NCBI GenBank assembly: GCA_023267215.1 | Contig: JAHFNS010000001.1 | Coordinates: 239,507 to 303,506 of the forward strand | Direction: 5' to 3' | Origin: Candidatus Nomurabacteria bacterium | GTDB lineage: Bacteria > Patescibacteriota > Minisyncoccia > Phycocordibacterales > UBA9973 | DNA: 64,000 bases | The notes under the pieces: model-generated | What the model was told of the DNA's origin: nothing | Database searches by the model: none | Seen by the model: only the letters and a program-made list of their open reading frames with translations | Position numbers and translations under genes: made by a program | In this document: positions 4,186 through 41,078 of the stretch, piece by piece | Position numbering within the stretch: position 1 is the stretch's first letter | Layout of the letters: each line of letters opens with the position of its first letter

Positions 4186-4204
4186 GTCAAGGATGCCCCT
4201 TGAC
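4186..4204. repeat. REP-like hairpin copy 1 (GTCAAGGATGCCCCTTGAC)
   Basis: Perfect 7-bp inverted repeat GTCAAGG/CCTTGAC around loop ATGCC. The identical sequence recurs at 5806-5824, and in inverted orientation at 4847-4865. Confidence 0.8.
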
Positions 4205-4220
4205 ATGCTATAATATCCTT

Positions 4221-4847
4221 ATGAAAAATAGAGACTATAAAGAATTTGCTTCTGGTAATATTCTGCATATTTATAACAGAGGCAATAATAAAGAAAAAAT
4301 ATTTTTTGATGAACAAGATTATAGAGCTTTTCTTTTTAGATTAGGACTTTGTTTGGGATTTACAGAAGAAGAATTAAATAAAGAAAAATTAATTGCTATG
4401 CCCTATTCAAGAATTAGGATTACTGATACAGATAAAAAAGATTTTACACTCCATGCTTTTTGTTTACTGCCAAACCATTTCCATTTATTAATAGAACAAA
4501 ATAAAGATATCCAAGTTTCAAAAATAATTTCTAAATTATGTACAAGTTATGCCATGTATTTGAATAAAAAACATAAAAGAGTTGGGCATGTTTTTCAAGA
4601 TCAATTTAAAGCAGTACTCGTCGAAGATGATCCACAACTGATGTGGACTTCTGCTTATATTCATATGAATCCAGTAAAAGATAAATTGGTAAAGAAACCT
4701 GAAGATTATAAATGGAGCAGTTATAATGATTTTGCATCTGATAGAAATTTACCAATAGTTAGTAAAGAACTATTAATAGAAACTTTTGGTGATCAAAAAA
4801 GTTTAATAAAAGAAACGTTAAATTTTAAGGTTAAAACAGAAATCTAG
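4221..4847 (+). CDS. IS200/IS605-family Y1 (HUH) transposase, REP-associated tyrosine transposase (RAYT)-like
   Basis: HUH motif LLPNHFHLLIEQ and a downstream Tyr-containing AYIHMNPVK motif. Flanked on both sides by REP hairpins. Start taken at ATG 4221 (MKNRDYKEF), since the track ORF starts on TTG inside REP1. Confidence 0.75.
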   Translation: MKNRDYKEFASGNILHIYNRGNNKEKIFFDEQDYRAFLFRLGLCLGFTEEELNKEKLIAMPYSRIRITDTDKKDFTLHAFCLLPNHFHLLIEQNKDIQVSKIISKLCTSYAMYLNKKHKRVGHVFQDQFKAVLVEDDPQLMWTSAYIHMNPVKDKLVKKPEDYKWSSYNDFASDRNLPIVSKELLIETFGDQKSLIKETLNFKVKTEI

Positions 4848-4865
4848 TCAAGGGGCATCCTTGAC
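4847..4865. repeat. REP-like hairpin copy 2, inverted orientation (GTCAAGGGGCATCCTTGAC)
   Basis: Same stem as copy 1 with a reverse-complemented loop. Lies between the RAYT stop and the dehydrogenase gene. Confidence 0.8.
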
Positions 4866-4869
4866 ATCT

Positions 4870-5781
4870 TTATTTTATCAAATTTATTGGCTTGTCTTTT
4901 AAATAAGCCTCAATATTATCTATCATCATTTTACTTCCCTTTCTGTCTGTTGTATCTGTATTATAAGAAATATGAGGTGTTGCCAAAACTTTTGGATGCT
5001 TGGCAAATTTCATATAAGATAAATCTAAAACATCACCATTCTGAATTGATCCACAATCATTGGCAACCCCTGCTAAAATATTTTTATCTAATGCTTCTAA
5101 AATTGCATTAGTATCATGCATTTGTATGCTCGTAATGGTTATAAAATAAGCACCTTTTTTAAAAGAATTAAAAAATTGTTTGTCTAAAAGTCCTGTCGTT
5201 TCTTTGTTTAAAGATAGAGTATTAACTACTACATCTGCATTTTTTATAGACTCTACCAAATCGTCATTTCTAATAAAATATTTAACATTCATCCCAAAAT
5301 CTTCACAAATTTTACCAACCTGTAAACCAATATTGCCTTTACCTAAAATGGTGATATTTTTACCAACCAAACCTTTGGTTCTTTCAGGAGTAACTCCTAC
5401 GGGTAAACTTAGATTATTAACATAATTTAGTAAATCTCTAAATAAATTAAGAACCATTGCTATTACCCATTCACTCACAGCTTCACTATTACAACCAGGA
5501 GCTCTTGCTACCAAAATATTTTTTTCTTTTAACTTTTCTAGGTTTAAAAAACCAACTCCAACAATCGGACAAGAAAAAAATTTATTTTCTAGTTCATATA
5601 ATTTTTCAGAAGCAAAACCAAAACGTCCAGTACAAATAATATCTGCATCTTTACACCTACTAAACCATTCATCCAACGTGGTAGATAAATTTTCATAATA
5701 AATAACTTCTCCTAATTTATTTAATCTTTCTCTTTCTTCTTTATTTAACCCCAAATCTTGTGTAACTACTATTTTAGACAT
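4870..5781 (-). CDS. D-isomer-specific 2-hydroxyacid dehydrogenase (NAD-binding; glycerate/phosphoglycerate dehydrogenase-like)
   Basis: Rossmann GXGXXG (ITILGKGNIGLQVG) plus catalytic-domain pattern (RFGFASEK...LVARAPG, HISYNT). Confidence 0.8.
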   Translation of the reverse strand: MSKIVVTQDLGLNKEERERLNKLGEVIYYENLSTTLDEWFSRCKDADIICTGRFGFASEKLYELENKFFSCPIVGVGFLNLEKLKEKNILVARAPGCNSEAVSEWVIAMVLNLFRDLLNYVNNLSLPVGVTPERTKGLVGKNITILGKGNIGLQVGKICEDFGMNVKYFIRNDDLVESIKNADVVVNTLSLNKETTGLLDKQFFNSFKKGAYFITITSIQMHDTNAILEALDKNILAGVANDCGSIQNGDVLDLSYMKFAKHPKVLATPHISYNTDTTDRKGSKMMIDNIEAYLKDKPINLIK

Positions 5782-5805
5782 AAAAATATTTAAATCCTCT
5801 TAAAT

Positions 5806-5824
5806 GTCAAGGATGCCCCTTGAC
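5806..5824. repeat. REP-like hairpin copy 3 (GTCAAGGATGCCCCTTGAC)
   Basis: Identical to copy 1, between the dehydrogenase start and the gyrA stop. Confidence 0.8.
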
Positions 5825-5828
5825 ATAT

Positions 5829-8282
5829 TTACATACAAGTCAGAGAAGCTATGCCGTCGCCAGCACGAAGACGCATTATTGTCACACCTTGAGTTTGTCT
5901 ACCAAGAGAGGAAATGTCTTTCAAAGCTGTCCTTATAACTTGACCTTTTTTGGACATTGCAATCAATTCTTCTTCTTCTCCTGTCACTACTTTCGCAACA
6001 ATAAGCTTACCCGTTTTAGGTGTTACTTTTGCCGTTTTAATACCAGAACCTCCTCTCTTTTGAACTTTGTATTCTTTAAGAGAAGTTTTCTTACCGAAGC
6101 CGTTTGCACTCATCGTCAAAAATGCACCATCTTTATTTTCTTTTTTCACAACATCCACACCGATAACAGCGTCTCCCTTACCGAGCTTAATTCCACGGAC
6201 ACCTCCTGCTGTTCTGCCCATTTCTCTAATATCAGATTCTTTAAATCTGATAGATTGTCCACCTTCTGTCGCCACCATCACTTCATCACCTTTCTCTATA
6301 ATGAGTGCTGAAACGAGACTGTCACCTTTATCTAGCCGAATAGCGATAATGCCACTTCTTCTGACATCTTTAAATCCTTCCCCAGACATTTTTTTAGCTG
6401 TGCCATCTTTAGTAGTTAAAATAAGGGAAATAGGAGATTTTTTCAATTCTTTTGGCATTGGTAAAATTGAAGTCACTTTCTCATCATTGTTGAGAGATAA
6501 GAAATTCATAATTGATTTACCTTTTGTCGCACGACGACCTTCTGGTATGTCATACATTTTCATTTGATATGCTTTTCCTAAGTTGGTGAAGAAAAGAAGA
6601 TCGCTGTGCGTAGAACCAGAAGCAAGCATCGTGACGAAATCTTCTTCTTTAGTTTCGAGGTCAACGACACCGACCCCCCCTCTTTTCTGAGAATGATATT
6701 CTGAAGGGTCAGTACGTTTGACATATCCACCTGCGGTGAAGACAAGCATCGTTTCTTTATCTGGAATTAAATCTTCATCAGAAATTTCTTTATTACCACC
6801 TTTGACAATTTTCGTCCTACGTTCGTCTGCATATTTTTCACGAATTTCTTTCAACTCAGAAGAAATAACACCTAAAATTTTCTTTGGTGATGCCAGAAGC
6901 TCCTTTGTTTCCTTGATGAATTTTTGTTTTTCGGCAAGTTCATTTTCTACTGCTTTTCTCTCAAGTCCGGCAAGTTTCTGTAATCTCATTTCCAAAATTG
7001 CTATCGTCTGCAATTCTGAAAACTTAAATTCTTTCATCAAATTAAACTTTGCGACTTGTCCATCTTTAGACCCACGGATGACAGTGATGACACGATCAAT
7101 TTTATCCAGTGCTTTTTTCAAGCCAAGTAAAATGTGTTCGCGTTCTTCTGCTTTTTTCAAATCATAAATATTTCTTCTTTTTACGACATCCTTTCTGTGT
7201 GTAATAAATAAAGCAAGAATTGATTTTAATGAGAGAGTCTCTGGGACACCATCTACTAGTGCCACAACATTAAAATTAAAATTGGATTCAAGTTGTGTAT
7301 TTTTATAAATATAATTTAAAATCTTTTCTGGTACAGCCGTATTTTTTAAATCAATGACTATTCTAATATCTTTGGTGGATTCGTCTCGCAAACCTTTTAT
7401 ACCATCAAGTTTTTTTTCTTGAACTAATTCTGCAATAGCCATTATTAAATTTGCTTTATTTACTCGATAAGGAATCGAAGTGATTATTATTTGAAATCCA
7501 CCTTTTTGTTCTATTATTTCAGCTTCACCACGACAAACAACCCCGCCCCGTCCTGTGCCATAAGCATGTAGCATGTCTTTGTAATTGTAGGCTATACCAC
7601 CAGTCGGAAAGTCAGGTCCTTTAACAAATTGCATCAAATCTTCGGTAGTAGCATCTTCATTTTCAATTAAATAATTAGTAGCATCTAACACTTCAGCTAG
7701 ATTGTGTGGAGGAATATTTGTGGCCATACCAACAGCAATACCAAGAGTACCGTTTAAAAGAAGAGATGGAACAGCTGAAGGTAAAACAACTGGTTCTGTT
7801 CTAGTCTGATCATAGTTGGGACGAAAGTCTACAGTTTCCTTTTCTAAATCTTGTAAAAGTAAAGAAGAAATTTTTGACATTTTTGCCTCTGTGTAACGCA
7901 TAGCAGCCGCACTATCTCCGTCAATTGAACCGAAATTTCCTTGTCCTAAAATTAAAGGATAACGATAAGAGAATTCTTGCGCCATACCAACCATGGTGTC
8001 ATAAACTGCCACATCTCCATGTGGATGATATTTTCCAAGCACATCTCCTACTATCGCTGCAGATTTTCGAAAACGAGCTGTTGAAGAGAGCCCCATTTCA
8101 TTCATACCAAATAAAATTTTACGATGCACTGGTTTCAATCCATCTCTAATATCTGGTAAAGCGCGCGAAGTAATGACAGACATAGCGTATGCCAAATAAG
8201 ATTCTTTCATTTCGGATACTACATCGACTGAAATTACTCCTTCTTTTCTTATTTCTATTATTTCCTTTTCTTTTTTTGCCAT
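5829..8282 (-). CDS. gyrA: DNA gyrase subunit A
   Basis: 817 aa. N-terminal [30 protein letters not shown] and the active-site Tyr region ([10 protein letters not shown]). C-terminal beta-pinwheel repeats. Confidence 0.95.
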
Positions 8283-9177: not shown

Positions 9178-9284
9178 CTCACCCCTTAATCCCCTCTCCA
9201 AGCAAGCTTAGAGAGGGGAAAAATACGTGAGCACCCCCTCTCTAAAATTTTAATTTTGGAGAGGGGGCAGGGGGGTGAGGAGGT
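9178..9284. repeat. GC-rich compound palindromic repeat, copy A (CCTCACCCC...CCCCTCTCC...GGAGAGGGG...GGGGTGAGG family)
   Basis: Nested inverted repeats cccctctc/gagagggg and ccccctctc/gagaggggg, bounded by cctcacccc/ggggtgagg. GC content is far above the flanks. Confidence 0.8.
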
Positions 9285-11221: not shown

Positions 11222-11474
11222 ATTTGAGCGGTATGTGCTCCGCCAACTTCATATAGCTTTTTAGCTTTTACTGAAAAATCCTTATTTAATAGTTGTTTAA
11301 CCTATTTAACAAAGACATACTTATATACTAGCATACTCCATATTAAAAGTCAATAGCAAGACATCATTTTAGTCATATGTCAAACTCAAAAAAGCTTGTA
11401 AAATAAGGATATTTTACAAGGTCACCATTGACAAATAAGGCTAAAATATGAATAATTTAGCCTCTGGGGATAAA

Positions 11475-11521
11475 AAGAAGGGCCGGCCTTCTCTGGATTT
11501 TAGAGAAAGTCGGCCCTTCTT
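11475..11521. terminator. Rho-independent terminator downstream of murC
   Basis: AAGAAGGGCCG...CGGCCCTTCTT 11-bp GC stem, followed on the minus strand by a T-run. Confidence 0.6.
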
Positions 11522-12853
11522 TTAGAATTTGAATAGTTTGTTGGCCACTTTATACGCCTCCCCGGCTCCCATTGTTACAAATACATCGTTTTCTCCAAGA
11601 TTTAGTTCCCTGATATAGGCTTCTGCTGATTCAAAGTCTGGGAAAGCCTTAGCTTTATCCCCCGCCAAGGTGATAGCAGAAGCCAGCTTCTCGCTTGAGA
11701 TACTCTCATCTTTAGCTTCTCTGGCAAAGAAAATAGGTAACAGGAAAATATTGTCTGCTCTCTTGAAACATTTAGCAAAGTCGTTAAATAGGGCTTTCGT
11801 CCTACTGTAGAGATGAGGCTGAAATAGAATTGTAATTTTTTTGGCTGGCTTGCCCTCCGAAGCTTTAGCGGAGGAGGGATAGATCTCTCGTAATGCTTCT
11901 AGGCTCGCCTTTATCTCTGTCGGATGATGAGCATAGTCATCATATACAATGGTACCTTCTTTGGTTTCCCCTCTTTTTTCCAATCTACGCCAAGTGCCAG
12001 AAAATTCGCTTAAAGCTTTCTTTGTAATTTCTTCATCAATATTTAAAAACTCTGCCACGGCCATAGCGGATGCCGCATTCATTCTGTTGTGTTCCCCTGG
12101 CACAGAAAGTTTCGGAACTTTATCTAAATATTTTGTGTAATCAATAACCTTTGCTTTATGTTCCTTTTTTAGAACATTAGAAACAGAAATACTGTTCGGG
12201 TCGCAAACTATAAAACTATCAGTTTGGTTTACCATTTCAGAAAAAGCAGATTCAATATCTTTTATATCTTTATAATAGTCCAAATGGTCTGCTTCAATAT
12301 TTGTGATAACCAAAATTTTAGGTTTTATATTTAAAAAAGATCTTTTGTATTCACAAGCTTCCACTACAAAAATATCACTTTCCCCTATTACTAAATTTGA
12401 ATTTGTTTCTTTTAGTAAAGACCCAACTATTACTGAAGGGTCTTTATCTGTATCAATTAAAATTTTTGAAATCATTGCAGTTGTTGTGGTTTTACCGTGA
12501 GTGCCAGAAACTGCTATTGTATTTTTATTTTCAGTTAAAATTCCAAGCATTTCTGGATAAGATTTTGATAATATTTTAGAATCTTTTATTTGTTTAAAAA
12601 TTTTAGAATCGTATTCTTCTATAGACCTAGTATAAACAATAAGCTCCGTATCAGCAGGTATATTTTCATAAGATTGACCTATCATAATTTTTGCTCCCAA
12701 TTTACTTAATTCATCAACCATTTTCCCCTCTTGCATATCCTGTCCAGTTACATCTTTACCCTCTGAAAGCATTAATCTGGCAACAGCTGAAATACCTATT
12801 CCCCCGATTCCAACGAAGTGTATATTTTTAATTTTTTGTAAATCTAGATTCAT
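11522..12853 (-). CDS. murC: UDP-N-acetylmuramate--L-alanine ligase
   Basis: N-terminal HFVGIGGIGISAVARLM signature and Mur-ligase central domain GTHGKTTTTAM. Confidence 0.9.
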   Translation of the reverse strand: MNLDLQKIKNIHFVGIGGIGISAVARLMLSEGKDVTGQDMQEGKMVDELSKLGAKIMIGQSYENIPADTELIVYTRSIEEYDSKIFKQIKDSKILSKSYPEMLGILTENKNTIAVSGTHGKTTTTAMISKILIDTDKDPSVIVGSLLKETNSNLVIGESDIFVVEACEYKRSFLNIKPKILVITNIEADHLDYYKDIKDIESAFSEMVNQTDSFIVCDPNSISVSNVLKKEHKAKVIDYTKYLDKVPKLSVPGEHNRMNAASAMAVAEFLNIDEEITKKALSEFSGTWRRLEKRGETKEGTIVYDDYAHHPTEIKASLEALREIYPSSAKASEGKPAKKITILFQPHLYSRTKALFNDFAKCFKRADNIFLLPIFFAREAKDESISSEKLASAITLAGDKAKAFPDFESAEAYIRELNLGENDVFVTMGAGEAYKVANKLFKF

Positions 12854-14217
12854 TTTAATTTTTTAACTATTTTCATAAACAAATCATTTCTTTCATATTC
12901 ATTATTAAATTGCCCGAAGGAGGCAAAAGCGGGAGAGAAAAGAATGACATCTCCTCGTGAGGCAAGACCTAACGCAGTTTTTACAGCTTCATTTAGATTT
13001 TTTACTTTTTTGTTTGGTATTTTTATTTTGTAATTTTTAAGTATCTTTTCTGTGCCACTGCCAGGAATAAAAACTACTGCCTTACAAAAAGTATTTACTA
13101 TATTTACAAAAAGATTCAAATCCAGATTTTTATCCGCACCGCCACAAATCAAAACTATTTTCCCTTCTTTGCCCGCTTGATAAAGAGCCTTAATGCCAGC
13201 AATAGTGGCTTCTAGCGTCGTCGCATTATTATCGTTATAAATTTTTACCCCTTTAACCATCTTTATGTATTGCAATCTTCCTTCTAACCCTTTAAATTTT
13301 TGAACCGTATTTTTTACTCTTGCTGTAGGAATATTGAAAAGTTTAGCTACTTCCACGGCGCAAGCGAGATTTTCTCTTTGATGCTCTCCAGGAACAATGA
13401 ATTTGTACCCTTCTGTTGTTTTTATATCAGCCACAATTAATTTTGATTTTATATTCTTATTTATGAGTTTTTTAACATGTGGTCGCACAATCAGATAATC
13501 TCCCTTTTTTTGATATTTAAAAATATTCGCTTTGTCGTCAAAATATTTTTCCATATTATCTTTATAATAATTCATATGGTCAGGCATGAAACTCGTAAAC
13601 ACAGCTATGTGTGGCGAAAAACCAGTATCACCAACTTGTCTGCCGAATTTTTGATGGCGGAAACCTTGCAGTTGCCAAGAATCAAGCTCGCAAATTAAAA
13701 TATCATTCTCTTTTACTTTTTTAAGAAGTGGAAGAGTTGCCACTCCTCTAACATTCCCTCCAATATATACTTTTCTTTTTAAGAATTTCTCATTTTTTTT
13801 CAGAATTTCATAGATAAGAGTCGTCACCATAGATTTACCTCTCGTCCCCGTCACACCCACTATCATCACTTCCGGTGCACATTTTGCGAAAAGCGACACA
13901 TCCATCTCTACAGGTATTTTGTTTTTTCTCGCTTCTTTTATATAAATAGAATCAAGTGGAACACCAGCAGCTTTTATAACCATGTCTCTGTTTCGAAAGT
14001 CTTCTAACCTGTGTTCTCCCAAAACAAACTTAATATCTTTATGTTTAGCCAGAGCTTTTACAGAAGTTGCCAATTGCTTTCTTGTTTTCAAATCCGTCAC
14101 GATCAAATTCGCCCCGCATTCCGCGAAAAATTTAGTGTACCCAAGCCCACGTCCCAAAAGCCCTAGCCCCATGACTGTGATTTTCTTTCCCTTAAATTGT
14201 TTTTTATAATCTTGCAT
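12850..14217 (-). CDS. murD: UDP-N-acetylmuramoylalanine--D-glutamate ligase
   Basis: N-terminal Rossmann-like KITVMGLGLLGRGLG, then GVTGTRGKS P-loop. Overlaps the murC start by 4 bp. Confidence 0.85.
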   Translation of the reverse strand: MQDYKKQFKGKKITVMGLGLLGRGLGYTKFFAECGANLIVTDLKTRKQLATSVKALAKHKDIKFVLGEHRLEDFRNRDMVIKAAGVPLDSIYIKEARKNKIPVEMDVSLFAKCAPEVMIVGVTGTRGKSMVTTLIYEILKKNEKFLKRKVYIGGNVRGVATLPLLKKVKENDILICELDSWQLQGFRHQKFGRQVGDTGFSPHIAVFTSFMPDHMNYYKDNMEKYFDDKANIFKYQKKGDYLIVRPHVKKLINKNIKSKLIVADIKTTEGYKFIVPGEHQRENLACAVEVAKLFNIPTARVKNTVQKFKGLEGRLQYIKMVKGVKIYNDNNATTLEATIAGIKALYQAGKEGKIVLICGGADKNLDLNLFVNIVNTFCKAVVFIPGSGTEKILKNYKIKIPNKKVKNLNEAVKTALGLASRGDVILFSPAFASFGQFNNEYERNDLFMKIVKKLK

Positions 14218-14264: not shown

Positions 14265-15551
14265 TTATTTAAATATTTTCTTAAACTCTTCTATATCATC
14301 AAAATGCGACTTCACTCCTTTTATTTCTTGATAATCTTCATGCCCTTTACCAGCACAAAGAATCACATCTCCTTTGTTTGCTAATTCCACAGATTGCTCT
14401 ATGGCCAAGCGACGATCCACAATAGTTATCACTTTCTTATTTTCTTCGTGAGTCAAATCCCCTTTCATGTCATCAATTATTTTATCAGGGTTTTCACTCC
14501 TCGGATTGTCGGAAGTAAAAATGGCAATGTCTGACAAATCTGCTCCTATCTTCCCCATTTTAGAACGTTTTGATTTATCACGATCACCACCACAACCAAA
14601 AACAGAGATAATCCTTCCCGCCTCGGGCTTAATTTCTTTCACAGCTAAAAGAATTTTTTCCAACGCATCTGGCGAGTGAGCATAATCTACAACAACTAAG
14701 ACGCCTTCTCTAGAAGTGAAATGTTCAAATCTTCCTCTTGGAGGCTGTATTCTCTCTAAAACCTTATTAACCTTCCCCATATCAAAAAAAAGAAGTTTGG
14801 AAGCGCCCCAAACAGCAAGCAAATTGTAAGCATTAAATTTTCCTAAAAGTTTTGAATTTACTTTTTCTCCATTGAAATCAAGTTCTAGTCCATTAAAATC
14901 TGATTTTAAAATTTTGCCATAAAAGTTTTCTTCCCCAAAGACGGTCTTCGGGGAGTTTCCCCGAAGACCGTCTTTGGGGAATTCTATAAAACCATAAAAG
15001 AACTTTTCTGCCTTAATGTCATCAAGCATTCCATTACCATAATCATCATCCATATTTGAGAGAGCAAAAGCAGTCCTAGGCAACATTTCAAAAAATTTCT
15101 TTTTAGCCTTGAAATAATTTTCAAAATCTCTGTGGTAATCCAAATGGTCGTGCGTTAGATTAGTGAAAATTCCACCAGTGAAATTTATCCCCGTTACCCT
15201 ATTTTGATCGAGTGCATGAGAAGAAACCTCCATAAATACATATTCACAGCCTTTTTCTACCATTTCCTTAAAAATCTTCGTCAAAGAAACAGAATCTGGG
15301 GTGGTAGCCGGGATTGGTTTATTAGAGTTTAATTGTAACTTTTCTTTCCCTACCAATATTTCTACAGTACTAATAAGTCCAGCCTTGTAGCCCAATTCTA
15401 TTGCTACTTCATATAAAAGAGTCGCTGTCGTCGTCTTGCCATTTGTCCCCGTCACGCCAATTATCTTTAATTTTCTAGATGGGTTTCCATAACGAATTCT
15501 CGCTACAAAAAGTTTCCCCGCCCACCATATATTTTTTAATTTCTTTAACAT
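14265..15551 (-). CDS. murE: UDP-N-acetylmuramoyl-L-alanyl-D-glutamate--2,6-diaminopimelate (or L-Lys) ligase
   Basis: IIGVTGTNGKTTT P-loop and the MurE-specific DNPR motif (FTSDNPRSENP). Confidence 0.85.
   Translation of the reverse strand: MLKKLKNIWWAGKLFVARIRYGNPSRKLKIIGVTGTNGKTTTATLLYEVAIELGYKAGLISTVEILVGKEKLQLNSNKPIPATTPDSVSLTKIFKEMVEKGCEYVFMEVSSHALDQNRVTGINFTGGIFTNLTHDHLDYHRDFENYFKAKKKFFEMLPRTAFALSNMDDDYGNGMLDDIKAEKFFYGFIEFPKDGLRGNSPKTVFGEENFYGKILKSDFNGLELDFNGEKVNSKLLGKFNAYNLLAVWGASKLLFFDMGKVNKVLERIQPPRGRFEHFTSREGVLVVVDYAHSPDALEKILLAVKEIKPEAGRIISVFGCGGDRDKSKRSKMGKIGADLSDIAIFTSDNPRSENPDKIIDDMKGDLTHEENKKVITIVDRRLAIEQSVELANKGDVILCAGKGHEDYQEIKGVKSHFDDIEEFKKIFK
14931..14981. repeat. 51-bp perfect GC-rich hairpin embedded in-frame in murE
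   Basis: TTCCCCAAAGACGGTCTTCGGGGA-GTT-TCCCCGAAGACCGTCTTTGGGGAA: 24-bp perfect stem with a 3-nt loop. Total length 51 nt, i.e. 17 codons. Confidence 0.85.
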
Positions 15552-19800: not shown

Positions 19801-19850
19801 GCACCTCACCCCCTTACCCCCTCTCCAGATTACTGGCGAGGGGGTTTCGT
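19801..19850. repeat. GC-rich palindromic repeat, partial copy B
   Basis: GCACCTCACCCCCTTACCCCCTCTCC...GAGGGGG, immediately upstream of the DUF559 gene. Confidence 0.7.
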
Positions 19851-20220: not shown

Positions 20221-20347
20221 TGCACCTCACCCCTTCCCCGCTCCATTTTAATAAAATGGAGCGGGGTTGATGCGAAGCAGACGGGGTGAGGTGCATTTTT
20301 CTCCCCTCTCTGGTACTCCGGAGAGGGGGCAGGGGGTGAGGTGTATT
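20221..20347. repeat. GC-rich palindromic repeat, double copy C
   Basis: First, the 75-nt near-perfect palindrome TGCACCTCACCCC-TTCCCCGCTCC...GGAGCGGGG...GGGGTGAGGTGCA. Then CTCCCCTCTC...GGAGAGGGGGCAGGGGGTGAGGTG. Confidence 0.8.
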
Positions 20348-20979: not shown

Positions 20980-22600
<1,621 letters not shown>

Positions 22601-27033: not shown

Positions 27034-27079
27034 CCACCTCTCCTTGTAAAGGAGAGGGGGCTAGGGGGTGAGGTGAATT
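27034..27079. repeat. GC-rich palindromic repeat, partial copy E
   Basis: CCACCTCTCCTTGTAAAGGAGAGGGGGCTAGGGGGTGAGGTG. Preceded at 26974-27010 by the hairpin CCCCCTTGTCAGGGGG plus a T-run. Confidence 0.7.
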
Positions 27080-41009: not shown

Positions 41010-41078
41010 TACCTCACCCCAGCTTGCTAGCTTTCCCCTCTCCTTATTAAGGAGAGGGGTCAGGGGTGAGGTGAATTT
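41010..41078. repeat. GC-rich palindromic repeat, copy F
   Basis: ACCTCACCCC-AGCTTGCTAGCTT-TCCCCTCTCCTTATTAAGGAGAGGGGTCAGGGGTGAGGTG. Confidence 0.8.

Follow-up and report, generated by a model that had tools for sequence, protein, structure and literature searches.

A 51-nt palindrome in frame within murE of a Candidatus Nomurabacteria bacterium, probably a repetitive extragenic palindrome doublet of the transposase-associated kind

The murE gene and its palindrome

The stretch of DNA analyzed here (the window) comprises 64,000 nt of contig JAHFNS010000001.1 (positions 239,507 to 303,506 of the forward strand; assembly GCA_023267215.1) from a Candidatus Nomurabacteria bacterium, an ultra-small member of the Patescibacteria. 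The minus strand of the window carries the gene murE (14265..15551), within which lies, in frame and also assigned to the minus strand, a 51-nt palindrome (14931..14981) that resembles the hairpin-forming doublets (REPINs) of repetitive extragenic palindromic (REP) sequences. The open reading frame (ORF) specifies a protein of 428 amino acids with Mur_ligase_M and Mur_ligase_C domains and no N-terminal domain 1, and matches solved MurE in sequence and in fold (template modeling score, TM, 0.78-0.81). The MurE proteins of the window and of 120 relatives are all ∼410-450 residues long, and their alignment starts at about residue 91-100 of solved MurE. The canonical domain 1 is absent from the entire set, in which a single predicted helix (residues 2-21) occurs instead.

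The palindrome, TTCCCCAAAGACGGTCTTCGGGGA-GTT-TCCCCGAAGACCGTCTTTGGGGAA, consists of two arms of 24 nt each, which are 100% complementary and form a perfect 24-bp stem closed by a 3-nt loop. The initial annotation of this DNA had reported the hairpin, its in-frame position and a G+C content far above that of the rest of the gene, all of which proved to be exact. The G+C content of the element is 29 out of 51 (0.57; 0.58 for the stem alone), compared with 33% for the host genome and 0.30-0.41 for the 2-kb bins around the hairpin. Dinucleotide-preserving shuffling of the window, repeated 20 times, gave longest perfect stems of 9-12 bp, so that a stem of 24 bp is far above chance. The predicted RNA fold in context reaches -50 kcal/mol (z = -9.3) and the DNA fold -31 kcal/mol (z = -11.1), and in neither case did any of 200 shuffles equal these values. 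An Rfam scan of the hairpin returned generic matches only (20-29 bits, against family thresholds of 37-289), none of which reached its gathering threshold. In a terminator scan of both strands the murE hairpin was not called; its tails (GAAAAC and TTCTAT) contain no T-run.

The 51 nt amount to 17 codons, which encode the peptide FPKDGLRGNSPKTVFGE (MurE residues 191-207). The site had been described as an apparent linker region. It does not lie between domains, however, but within the central ATP-binding domain, as a loop flanked by two beta-strands (E182-188 and E210-218). In the AlphaFold model of the protein (mean predicted local distance difference test score, pLDDT, of 84) the sole segment below 50 comprises residues 191-207, i.e., exactly the insert, which the model thus places in its only low-confidence loop, as a proposed structural check was meant to reveal. 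On the basis of this model, the 17-residue insert is probably a tolerated and disordered loop. The 51 nt are most likely translated, into a disordered 17-mer rich in Pro/Gly/Ser/Arg, which is presumably neutral for MurE.

Gain of the palindrome and occupancy of the murE loop

The closest relatives of the window protein, P0002 and P0003 (loci L003 and L004), are encoded by genes with 87% nucleotide identity to the window murE, distributed evenly along the gene. Both have an empty loop of 8 residues (YGF-GEETEFLD-FYGK), where the window protein reads YGF-IE[17 aa]EN-FYGK, and an 8-residue empty loop is also common among more distant MurE relatives. Neither arm of the hairpin was found in the empty alleles L003 and L004, and the flanks of the hairpin are collinear with the orthologues on both sides. 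The alignment, which had been suggested as a check, bears out an insertion relative to the two closest orthologues, both of which keep the ancestral loop. Since these relatives have the empty loop, the element was gained after the split from them, and part of the old loop was lost. The exact junction is not placeable, because the occupied allele retains only 4 of the 8 ancestral loop residues. A recombinant patch derived from an L001- or L005-like allele was considered as the source of the segment and rejected, given that the sliding-window identity is L003/L004-like along the whole of murE.

In its basal form this loop, bounded by YGF and F[YH]G[KE]I, comprises either 5 or 8 residues. It is enlarged in 49 of the 120 MurE relatives, and the enlarged loops hold at least four unrelated palindrome-type peptides (FP....RG.SP....GE; SGVGHP..VSNTR; DVGHLE or DVGRLE..TSG; and PARNASH.DAGG). 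Of these, the SGVGHP type corresponds to the hairpin on the flanks of a transposase gene at locus L008, as described below. An element of this kind had initially been regarded as unexpected in the lineage, a view that does not hold in light of the enlarged loops and of the closest relatives, which have other in-frame palindromes in murE.

The latter palindromes are G+C-rich and lie elsewhere in the gene. In L003 (murE at 4954-6237) the palindrome is MPARNATHSVAGG (-31 kcal/mol), in L004 (murE at 838-2121) it is LPASGGKTFEGDPPRAG (-39 kcal/mol), and in L005 (murE at 889-2205) it is IPTRVGTPTGVGESTRG. The PARNA..AGG palindrome type recurs at one place of murE in several relatives. The presence of different palindromes in the murE genes of L003 and L004 implies that the turnover of the elements is fast relative to 13% sequence divergence. 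MurE protein P0055 and contig L011 (JAMPXW010000005.1), labelled “Burkholderiales bacterium”, bear a Patescibacteria-like MurE, 68% identical to that of the window, together with a Patescibacteria-type element; the label is probably due to mis-binning or mislabelling.

A doublet of short inverted units

Each arm of the murE palindrome is itself near-palindromic, matching its own reverse complement with 3 mismatches, and the element can therefore be resolved into a 21-23-nt unit and a second, inverted copy of it. The unit (CCCCRAAGAC-S-GTCTTYGGGG) is an imperfect hairpin, and its two inverted copies are spaced 3-5 nt apart. Both units of the window element are given here on the minus strand, in the sense of the mRNA. 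Unit 1 (14958..14981) reads TTCCCCAAAGAC-G-GTCTTCGGGGA, a near-palindrome with an A.C mismatch at the fifth stem pair. Unit 2 (14931..14954) reads TCCCCGAAGAC-C-GTCTTTGGGGAA; it is the exact reverse complement of unit 1 and has G.T at the fifth pair. The same asymmetry (A..C in one arm, G..T in the other) is found in the doublet within murD at locus L041, which differs from the window element in the loop only, and 47 of the 51 nt of the window element are identical in murD of another organism. The doublet thus recurs as a single entity in two genes, murE of the window and murD of L041. The window subfamily is open in all six reading frames, which was not counted as an adaptation, since by a rough estimate about one in six random palindromes of like composition would also be open.

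The wider family shares the layout TTCCCC-N13-GGGGA-N3-TCCCC-N13-GGGGAA, and its members at the same murE site in other genomes have the same length and a different inner sequence. Pairing was counted in an alignment of 19 distinct members of this family. In the long-hairpin fold 98.2% of the positions were paired and 14 of the 24 pairs were changed on both sides. None of 500 shuffles matched the observed percentage of pairing, the number of both-side changes or the covariation score, and shifts of register lowered the pairing to 28-61%. The alternative fold, composed of two short hairpins, was 91% paired and included 10 covarying pairs. The mismatch at the fifth pair of each unit is recurrent (14 and 11 of the 19 members, respectively), and these positions are paired in the long hairpin.

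Distribution among genes and genomes

A generic 51-nt pattern, with 22 fixed bases and exact ends required, was scanned in 185,579 species genomes; the window's own element is not among the matches. The pattern was found at 13 loci, 12 of them labelled Patescibacteria and one Burkholderiales, and the latter locus is probably mis-binned; on this reading the wider family is confined to the Patescibacteria. All 14 elements at these loci were located in frame inside ORFs of 202-719 codons. The host genes included murE (three elements, one site), murD (three, one site) and fmt (two, one site), in addition to rsmH, the gene for ATP synthase gamma (atpG), lepA, uvrA (at L021) and a class-V aminotransferase gene. 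Copies within one genome have a common inner sequence, and elements at the same site in different genomes have different inner sequences. The class-V aminotransferase gene, at L020, contains two 51-nt doublets (5119-5169 and 5832-5882), which belong to two subfamilies, are read in different frames and have the inner sequences TATGTCAGACATA and GAAACCAGGTTTA.

The window-type unit was detected at 24 loci in metagenome contigs of JGI and ENA. Doublets of this type are present, in frame, in murD (L041), topA, gatB and the ATP synthase gamma gene, and single units in the gene of an M1-type aminopeptidase and in other ORFs. Across its hosts the unit is read in all three frames.

Association with transposase genes

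Genes for REP-associated tyrosine transposases (RAYTs) of one clade were present at 5 of the 24 unit loci (L026, L031, L042, L044 and L045). The five cognate RAYTs show 68-83% mutual identity and share the N-terminus MG[FY]RK..EFYHIYNRGN, the HUH motif LMPNHFHIY and the tyrosine motif SYIHLNPIK. At four of these loci (L026, L042, L044 and L045) an exact unit is located 33 nt before the RAYT start codon (-33) and is followed by TATAAT. The downstream side also bears an exact unit in L026, L042 and L045, which coincides with or closely follows the stop codon (+690 to +692); the contig of L044 ends at this point. The occurrence of the unit on both sides of the gene represents the diagnostic REP-RAYT arrangement (as in PMC5581495). 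The unit family thus flanks one RAYT (HUH/Y1) clade in related Patescibacteria. Each of three further RAYT-like genes (in the window, at L008 and at L009) likewise has a distinct hairpin of its own on its flanks, which makes the arrangement a general one in this group.

In all five cognate RAYT genes a further copy of the unit follows the HUH motif directly, in frame (...NHFHIY..[F/S]PEDGLRGE...), and the nearest outgroup RAYT (L009) is without such a unit. At L008 a RAYT gene (12600-13465) is situated between murD and murC and is flanked by TTAGGTGTCCAACACCTATAAT hairpins. When read in frame, this type of hairpin yields the SGVGHP/VSNTR peptides of the MurE loop in other relatives.

The RAYT-like Y1/HUH transposase gene of the window (4221..4847, plus strand) does not belong to the clade that is flanked by the murE-type unit. 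Its product reaches 45 bits with Pfam Y1_Tnp and 72 bits with NCBIfam REP_Tyr_transpos (cut-off 80), the latter being the closest by hidden Markov model. Just upstream of the gene is a 19-nt hairpin of another REP family, GTCAAGGATGCCCCTTGAC (4186..4204, plus strand), with an inverted copy at 4847-4865 and a third copy at 5806-5824, past a neighboring gene for a 303-residue protein. Together with GTCAAGGATGCCCCTTGAC, the window RAYT makes up a second pair of REP and RAYT, whose sequence bears no relation to that of the murE element. The window RAYT was also considered as the mobilizer of the murE element and was rejected as a demonstrated partner, owing to this unrelated flanking hairpin and to its identity of 32-35% to the unit-flanked clade.

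Comparison with known palindromic repeats

Classical REPINs occur in tens to hundreds of copies. They have been described as RAYT-dependent doublets, in which the unit is imperfect and the doublet forms a perfect hairpin (PMC5581495; summarizing Bertels & Rainey 2011, Nunvar 2010 and Ton-Hoang 2012). The murE element is similar in its short imperfect palindromic unit, in the combination of two inverted units into one long hairpin, in the recurrence of the doublet and in the presence of the unit on both sides of a Y1/HUH gene of the REP_Tyr_transpos type. It differs from REPINs in that it is much shorter (51 nt), is very low in copy number, lacks a GTAG/CGTC tag and resides in Patescibacteria. 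In contrast to the extragenic REPINs, the murE-type doublets examined in context are in-frame parts of ORFs, and the unit is found inside the RAYT gene as well. The murE element thus works like a REPIN but departs from REPs in three of their hallmarks, namely the extragenic location, the high copy number and the GTAG/CGTC tag.

REPs of the GTAG/CGTC classes and their dimers have been described inside ORFs of known proteins, including uvrA, and code for ∼20-30 residues (Di Nocera et al. 2013, PMC3733652). Their hosts are Opitutus, Thauera, Xanthomonas and others, and the set includes the Rickettsia palindromic elements (RPEs) RPE-4 and RPE-6 of Rickettsia conorii; the same site is occasionally used in orthologues, as in recB of Xanthomonas (PMC3733652). 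The Patescibacteria elements are similar in that the repeats lie wholly within ORFs, uvrA (here in L021) among them. However, the intragenic REPs constitute a minority of large extragenic families, whereas in the Patescibacteria family the intragenic location is the rule. Moreover, the end tags of the murE-type element are different or absent, and one loop is reused by several families in ∼40% of the relatives.

The Rickettsia element RPE-1, attributed to work of Ogata and colleagues in 2000, is said to measure ∼100-150 bp, to be confined to Rickettsia and to be inserted in frame in housekeeping genes without inactivating them, reportedly in what are thought to be surface loops. RPE-1 is not known to be associated with a transposase. 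Compared by description, the murE element shares with RPE-1 a palindrome in frame in a functional housekeeping gene, and differs from RPE-1 in its length (51 nt), its Patescibacteria host and its RAYT association. Of the initial suggestion that the palindrome is an RPE-like element in a coding gene, the in-frame palindromic insertion was upheld; the closest kind of element, however, is the RAYT-associated REPIN rather than a strict RPE.

The transposases of the IS200/IS605 group (e.g., TnpA of IS608) are Y1/HUH enzymes that act on imperfect hairpins in single-stranded DNA by “peel and paste”, with no target duplication. The absence of a target duplication is common to these systems and the murE-type elements. 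In contrast to IS200/IS605, the murE-type element is gene-free and no conserved tetranucleotide target was found. In the full-text literature, which leaves most subscription journals outside its coverage, no description of REPs, miniature transposable elements with inverted repeats (MITEs) or palindromes was found for the Patescibacteria, also referred to as the candidate phyla radiation (CPR).

Interpretation and alternative explanations

Taken together, the murE palindrome is most probably a non-autonomous RAYT-associated REP doublet that is tolerated in frame. By analogy with RAYTs and the TnpA proteins of IS200/IS605, a RAYT would recognize the hairpin on single-stranded DNA and would cut and paste, or copy, the doublet as one unit into single-stranded targets; we infer both the catalysis by RAYT and the single-strand mechanism from this analogy. 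Selection would then keep those copies that combine a length divisible by three, a stop-free frame and a tolerant loop. In murE the doublet would have entered the variable central-domain loop once the lineage had split from its closest sampled relatives, in part replacing the ancestral loop of 8 residues.

A number of observations weigh against this interpretation. Further copies, for which the initial annotation had proposed a search, do occur in genes of related organisms and in the flanks of their RAYT genes, but no second copy of the unit is present in the 64-kb window, with up to 3 mismatches allowed; because the window holds one copy alone, the repeat nature of the element rests on the related genomes. 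The copy number is low, i.e., 2-4 strict doublets per genome where several were seen, a lower bound in view of the exact ends required. Neither a target-site consensus nor a target-site duplication was detected in the flanks of the 14 elements. Likewise, no direct repeats flank the window copy or the 14 elements, and, since the element is one hairpin, it does not qualify as a MITE. The ends carry no GTAG or CGTC tag and read either TT-CCCC...GGGG-AA or TATAAT; CGTC appears in the window subfamily at the center only. The sole RAYT gene of the 64-kb window belongs to another clade and has an unrelated hairpin, and the murE copy may be an immobile relic. Even in model organisms, the movement of REPINs by RAYTs has indirect support only (PMC5581495). 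Finally, different genomes have different palindromes at one and the same place, both in this loop of murE and at the respective sites of murD, fmt and atpG, which simple random transposition does not predict.

The reuse of sites thus goes beyond the model of a tolerated REP doublet, and either the tolerated sites are few or new hairpins are drawn to, or take the place of, resident ones. A more far-reaching proposal, which we advance tentatively and consider doubtful as a whole, is that the Patescibacteria possess REPIN lineages specialized for ORFs. Such elements would be exactly 51 nt long and without stops in the frames that are used, and would encode loop-forming Pro/Gly/Ser/Arg peptides; they would home non-randomly to resident hairpins, or replace them, and the copy inside the RAYT gene would couple the expression or activity of the transposase to its own repeat. 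Homing to, or replacement within, the permissive loops of murE, murD, fmt and atpG would explain why the same codon positions bear different palindromes.

Among the alternatives to a RAYT-mobilized doublet, the one that fares best, improbable as we judge it, is that the palindrome is mobile, or was so once, and spread without RAYT. Another single-strand transposase, hairpin-seeded template switching or gene conversion between hairpins would then account for the copies, the RAYT genes being a mere landing site. Such a scenario is compatible with the unit that lies in frame inside the RAYT genes after the HUH motif, which marks these genes as targets, and it also agrees with the lack of a GTAG or CGTC tag and with the lack of a cognate RAYT in the window. 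Relative to the RAYT genes the unit nevertheless keeps fixed positions, one at -33, ahead of TATAAT, and one at the stop codon; three independent loci have it on both sides of the gene and a fourth has it upstream, and the RAYTs of the window, L008 and L009 are each flanked likewise by their own hairpin.

Very unlikely, in our view, is a structure selected within the murE gene or its mRNA (a pause site, a hairpin for RNase processing or stability, or a DNA signal) and inherited vertically. The hairpins borne by the same loop in many lineages, the compensatory changes that hold the pairing at 98% and the great stability of the mRNA hairpin (-50 kcal/mol) would all be in keeping with such a role. 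This explanation conflicts, however, with the closest relatives, which keep the ancestral loop and have no hairpin there, with the copies of this sequence next to transposase genes and in genes unrelated to murE, and with the occupation of the loop by at least four unrelated palindrome types. Moreover, no Rfam family reaches its threshold and the T-run of a terminator is missing.

The prospect that the 17 residues are a selected peptide module of MurE (e.g., an interaction loop), the palindrome being incidental, is slimmer still. The segment is in frame and devoid of stop codons, and similar peptides (FP..G.RG.SP....GE) recur at the murE site. Yet it is the symmetry of the DNA that is conserved rather than the peptide, since the inner residues vary and the pairing is kept. 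In other genes other frames are used, resulting in SPKTVFGE, PRRPSSG or PEDGLRG. In addition, the pLDDT of the insert is below 50 and the closest relatives lack it.

There is scarcely any room for a local, one-off event, in which 24 nt of murE would have undergone an inverted duplication or a quasi-palindrome template switch without ever being mobile. A perfect palindrome with a tiny loop is a typical product of template switching, and an addition of 24 + 3 = 27 nt would have kept the frame too, but neither arm is found in the empty alleles of L003 and L004, 47 of the 51 nt are found in murD of another organism and the unit is present at 24 metagenome loci.

An assembly artefact can effectively be dismissed: a foldback chimera can create perfect inverted repeats, but here the inversion is limited to 24 bp, with flanks that are not inverted and are collinear with orthologous murE on both sides, the exact 51-mer is also present on a Logan contig of run SRR14366760 (i.e., in a second assembly, which excludes the artefact that the initial annotation had considered), four contigs of the collection, drawn from ENA, Logan and elsewhere, encode the identical MurE protein with the insert, and the family is represented in dozens of assemblies.

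Implications for gene-dense genomes

In-frame palindromic repeats are already known, in the form of Rickettsia RPEs and intragenic REPs, and the Patescibacteria case adds a RAYT-linked variant to them. It suggests that such repeats survive inside housekeeping genes of the gene-dense genomes of the Patescibacteria/CPR, where they appear to have moved into coding sequence rather than to have vanished, and it extends the association of REPs or REPINs with RAYTs to a phylum of tiny, gene-dense genomes. The elements account for a class of odd, G+C-rich, low-complexity inserts in Patescibacteria proteins, which can mislead alignments, phylogenies, structure predictions and gene calls. They also provide a natural experiment on where essential enzymes (Mur ligases, Fmt, GatB, TopA, UvrA and LepA) have loops that tolerate 8-17 extra residues, on whether RAYT-type elements select their targets and on translation through very stable hairpins (-50 kcal/mol). 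The reuse of one site by different repeat families is not predicted by current models; this recurrent use of the same loops, together with the repeat's presence within the gene of its own transposase, is the more interesting, unexplained side of the system.

Other repeats of the window

Two further types of repeat were observed in the window. Intergenic elements of 62-69 nt are located at 20224-20292, 21362-21429 and 41011-41072 and are bounded by 10-bp terminal inverted repeats (ACCTCACCCC...GGGGTGAGGT); partial copies are found at 9178-9267, 19803-19845 and 27034-27074. The motif GGGGTGAGGT occurs 9 times in the window, compared with 0 occurrences expected. These elements enclose an inner hairpin (CCCCTCTCC-loop-GGAGAGGGG), and similar hairpins are present in L008. 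The second type is another 51-nt hairpin (AAAAGAAGGGCCGGCC...) at 11473-11523, with a 22-bp stem that includes 2 mismatches and with a 7-nt loop. This hairpin, which extends over the murC stop codon and is bordered by A/T runs on either side, has the look of a bidirectional terminator.

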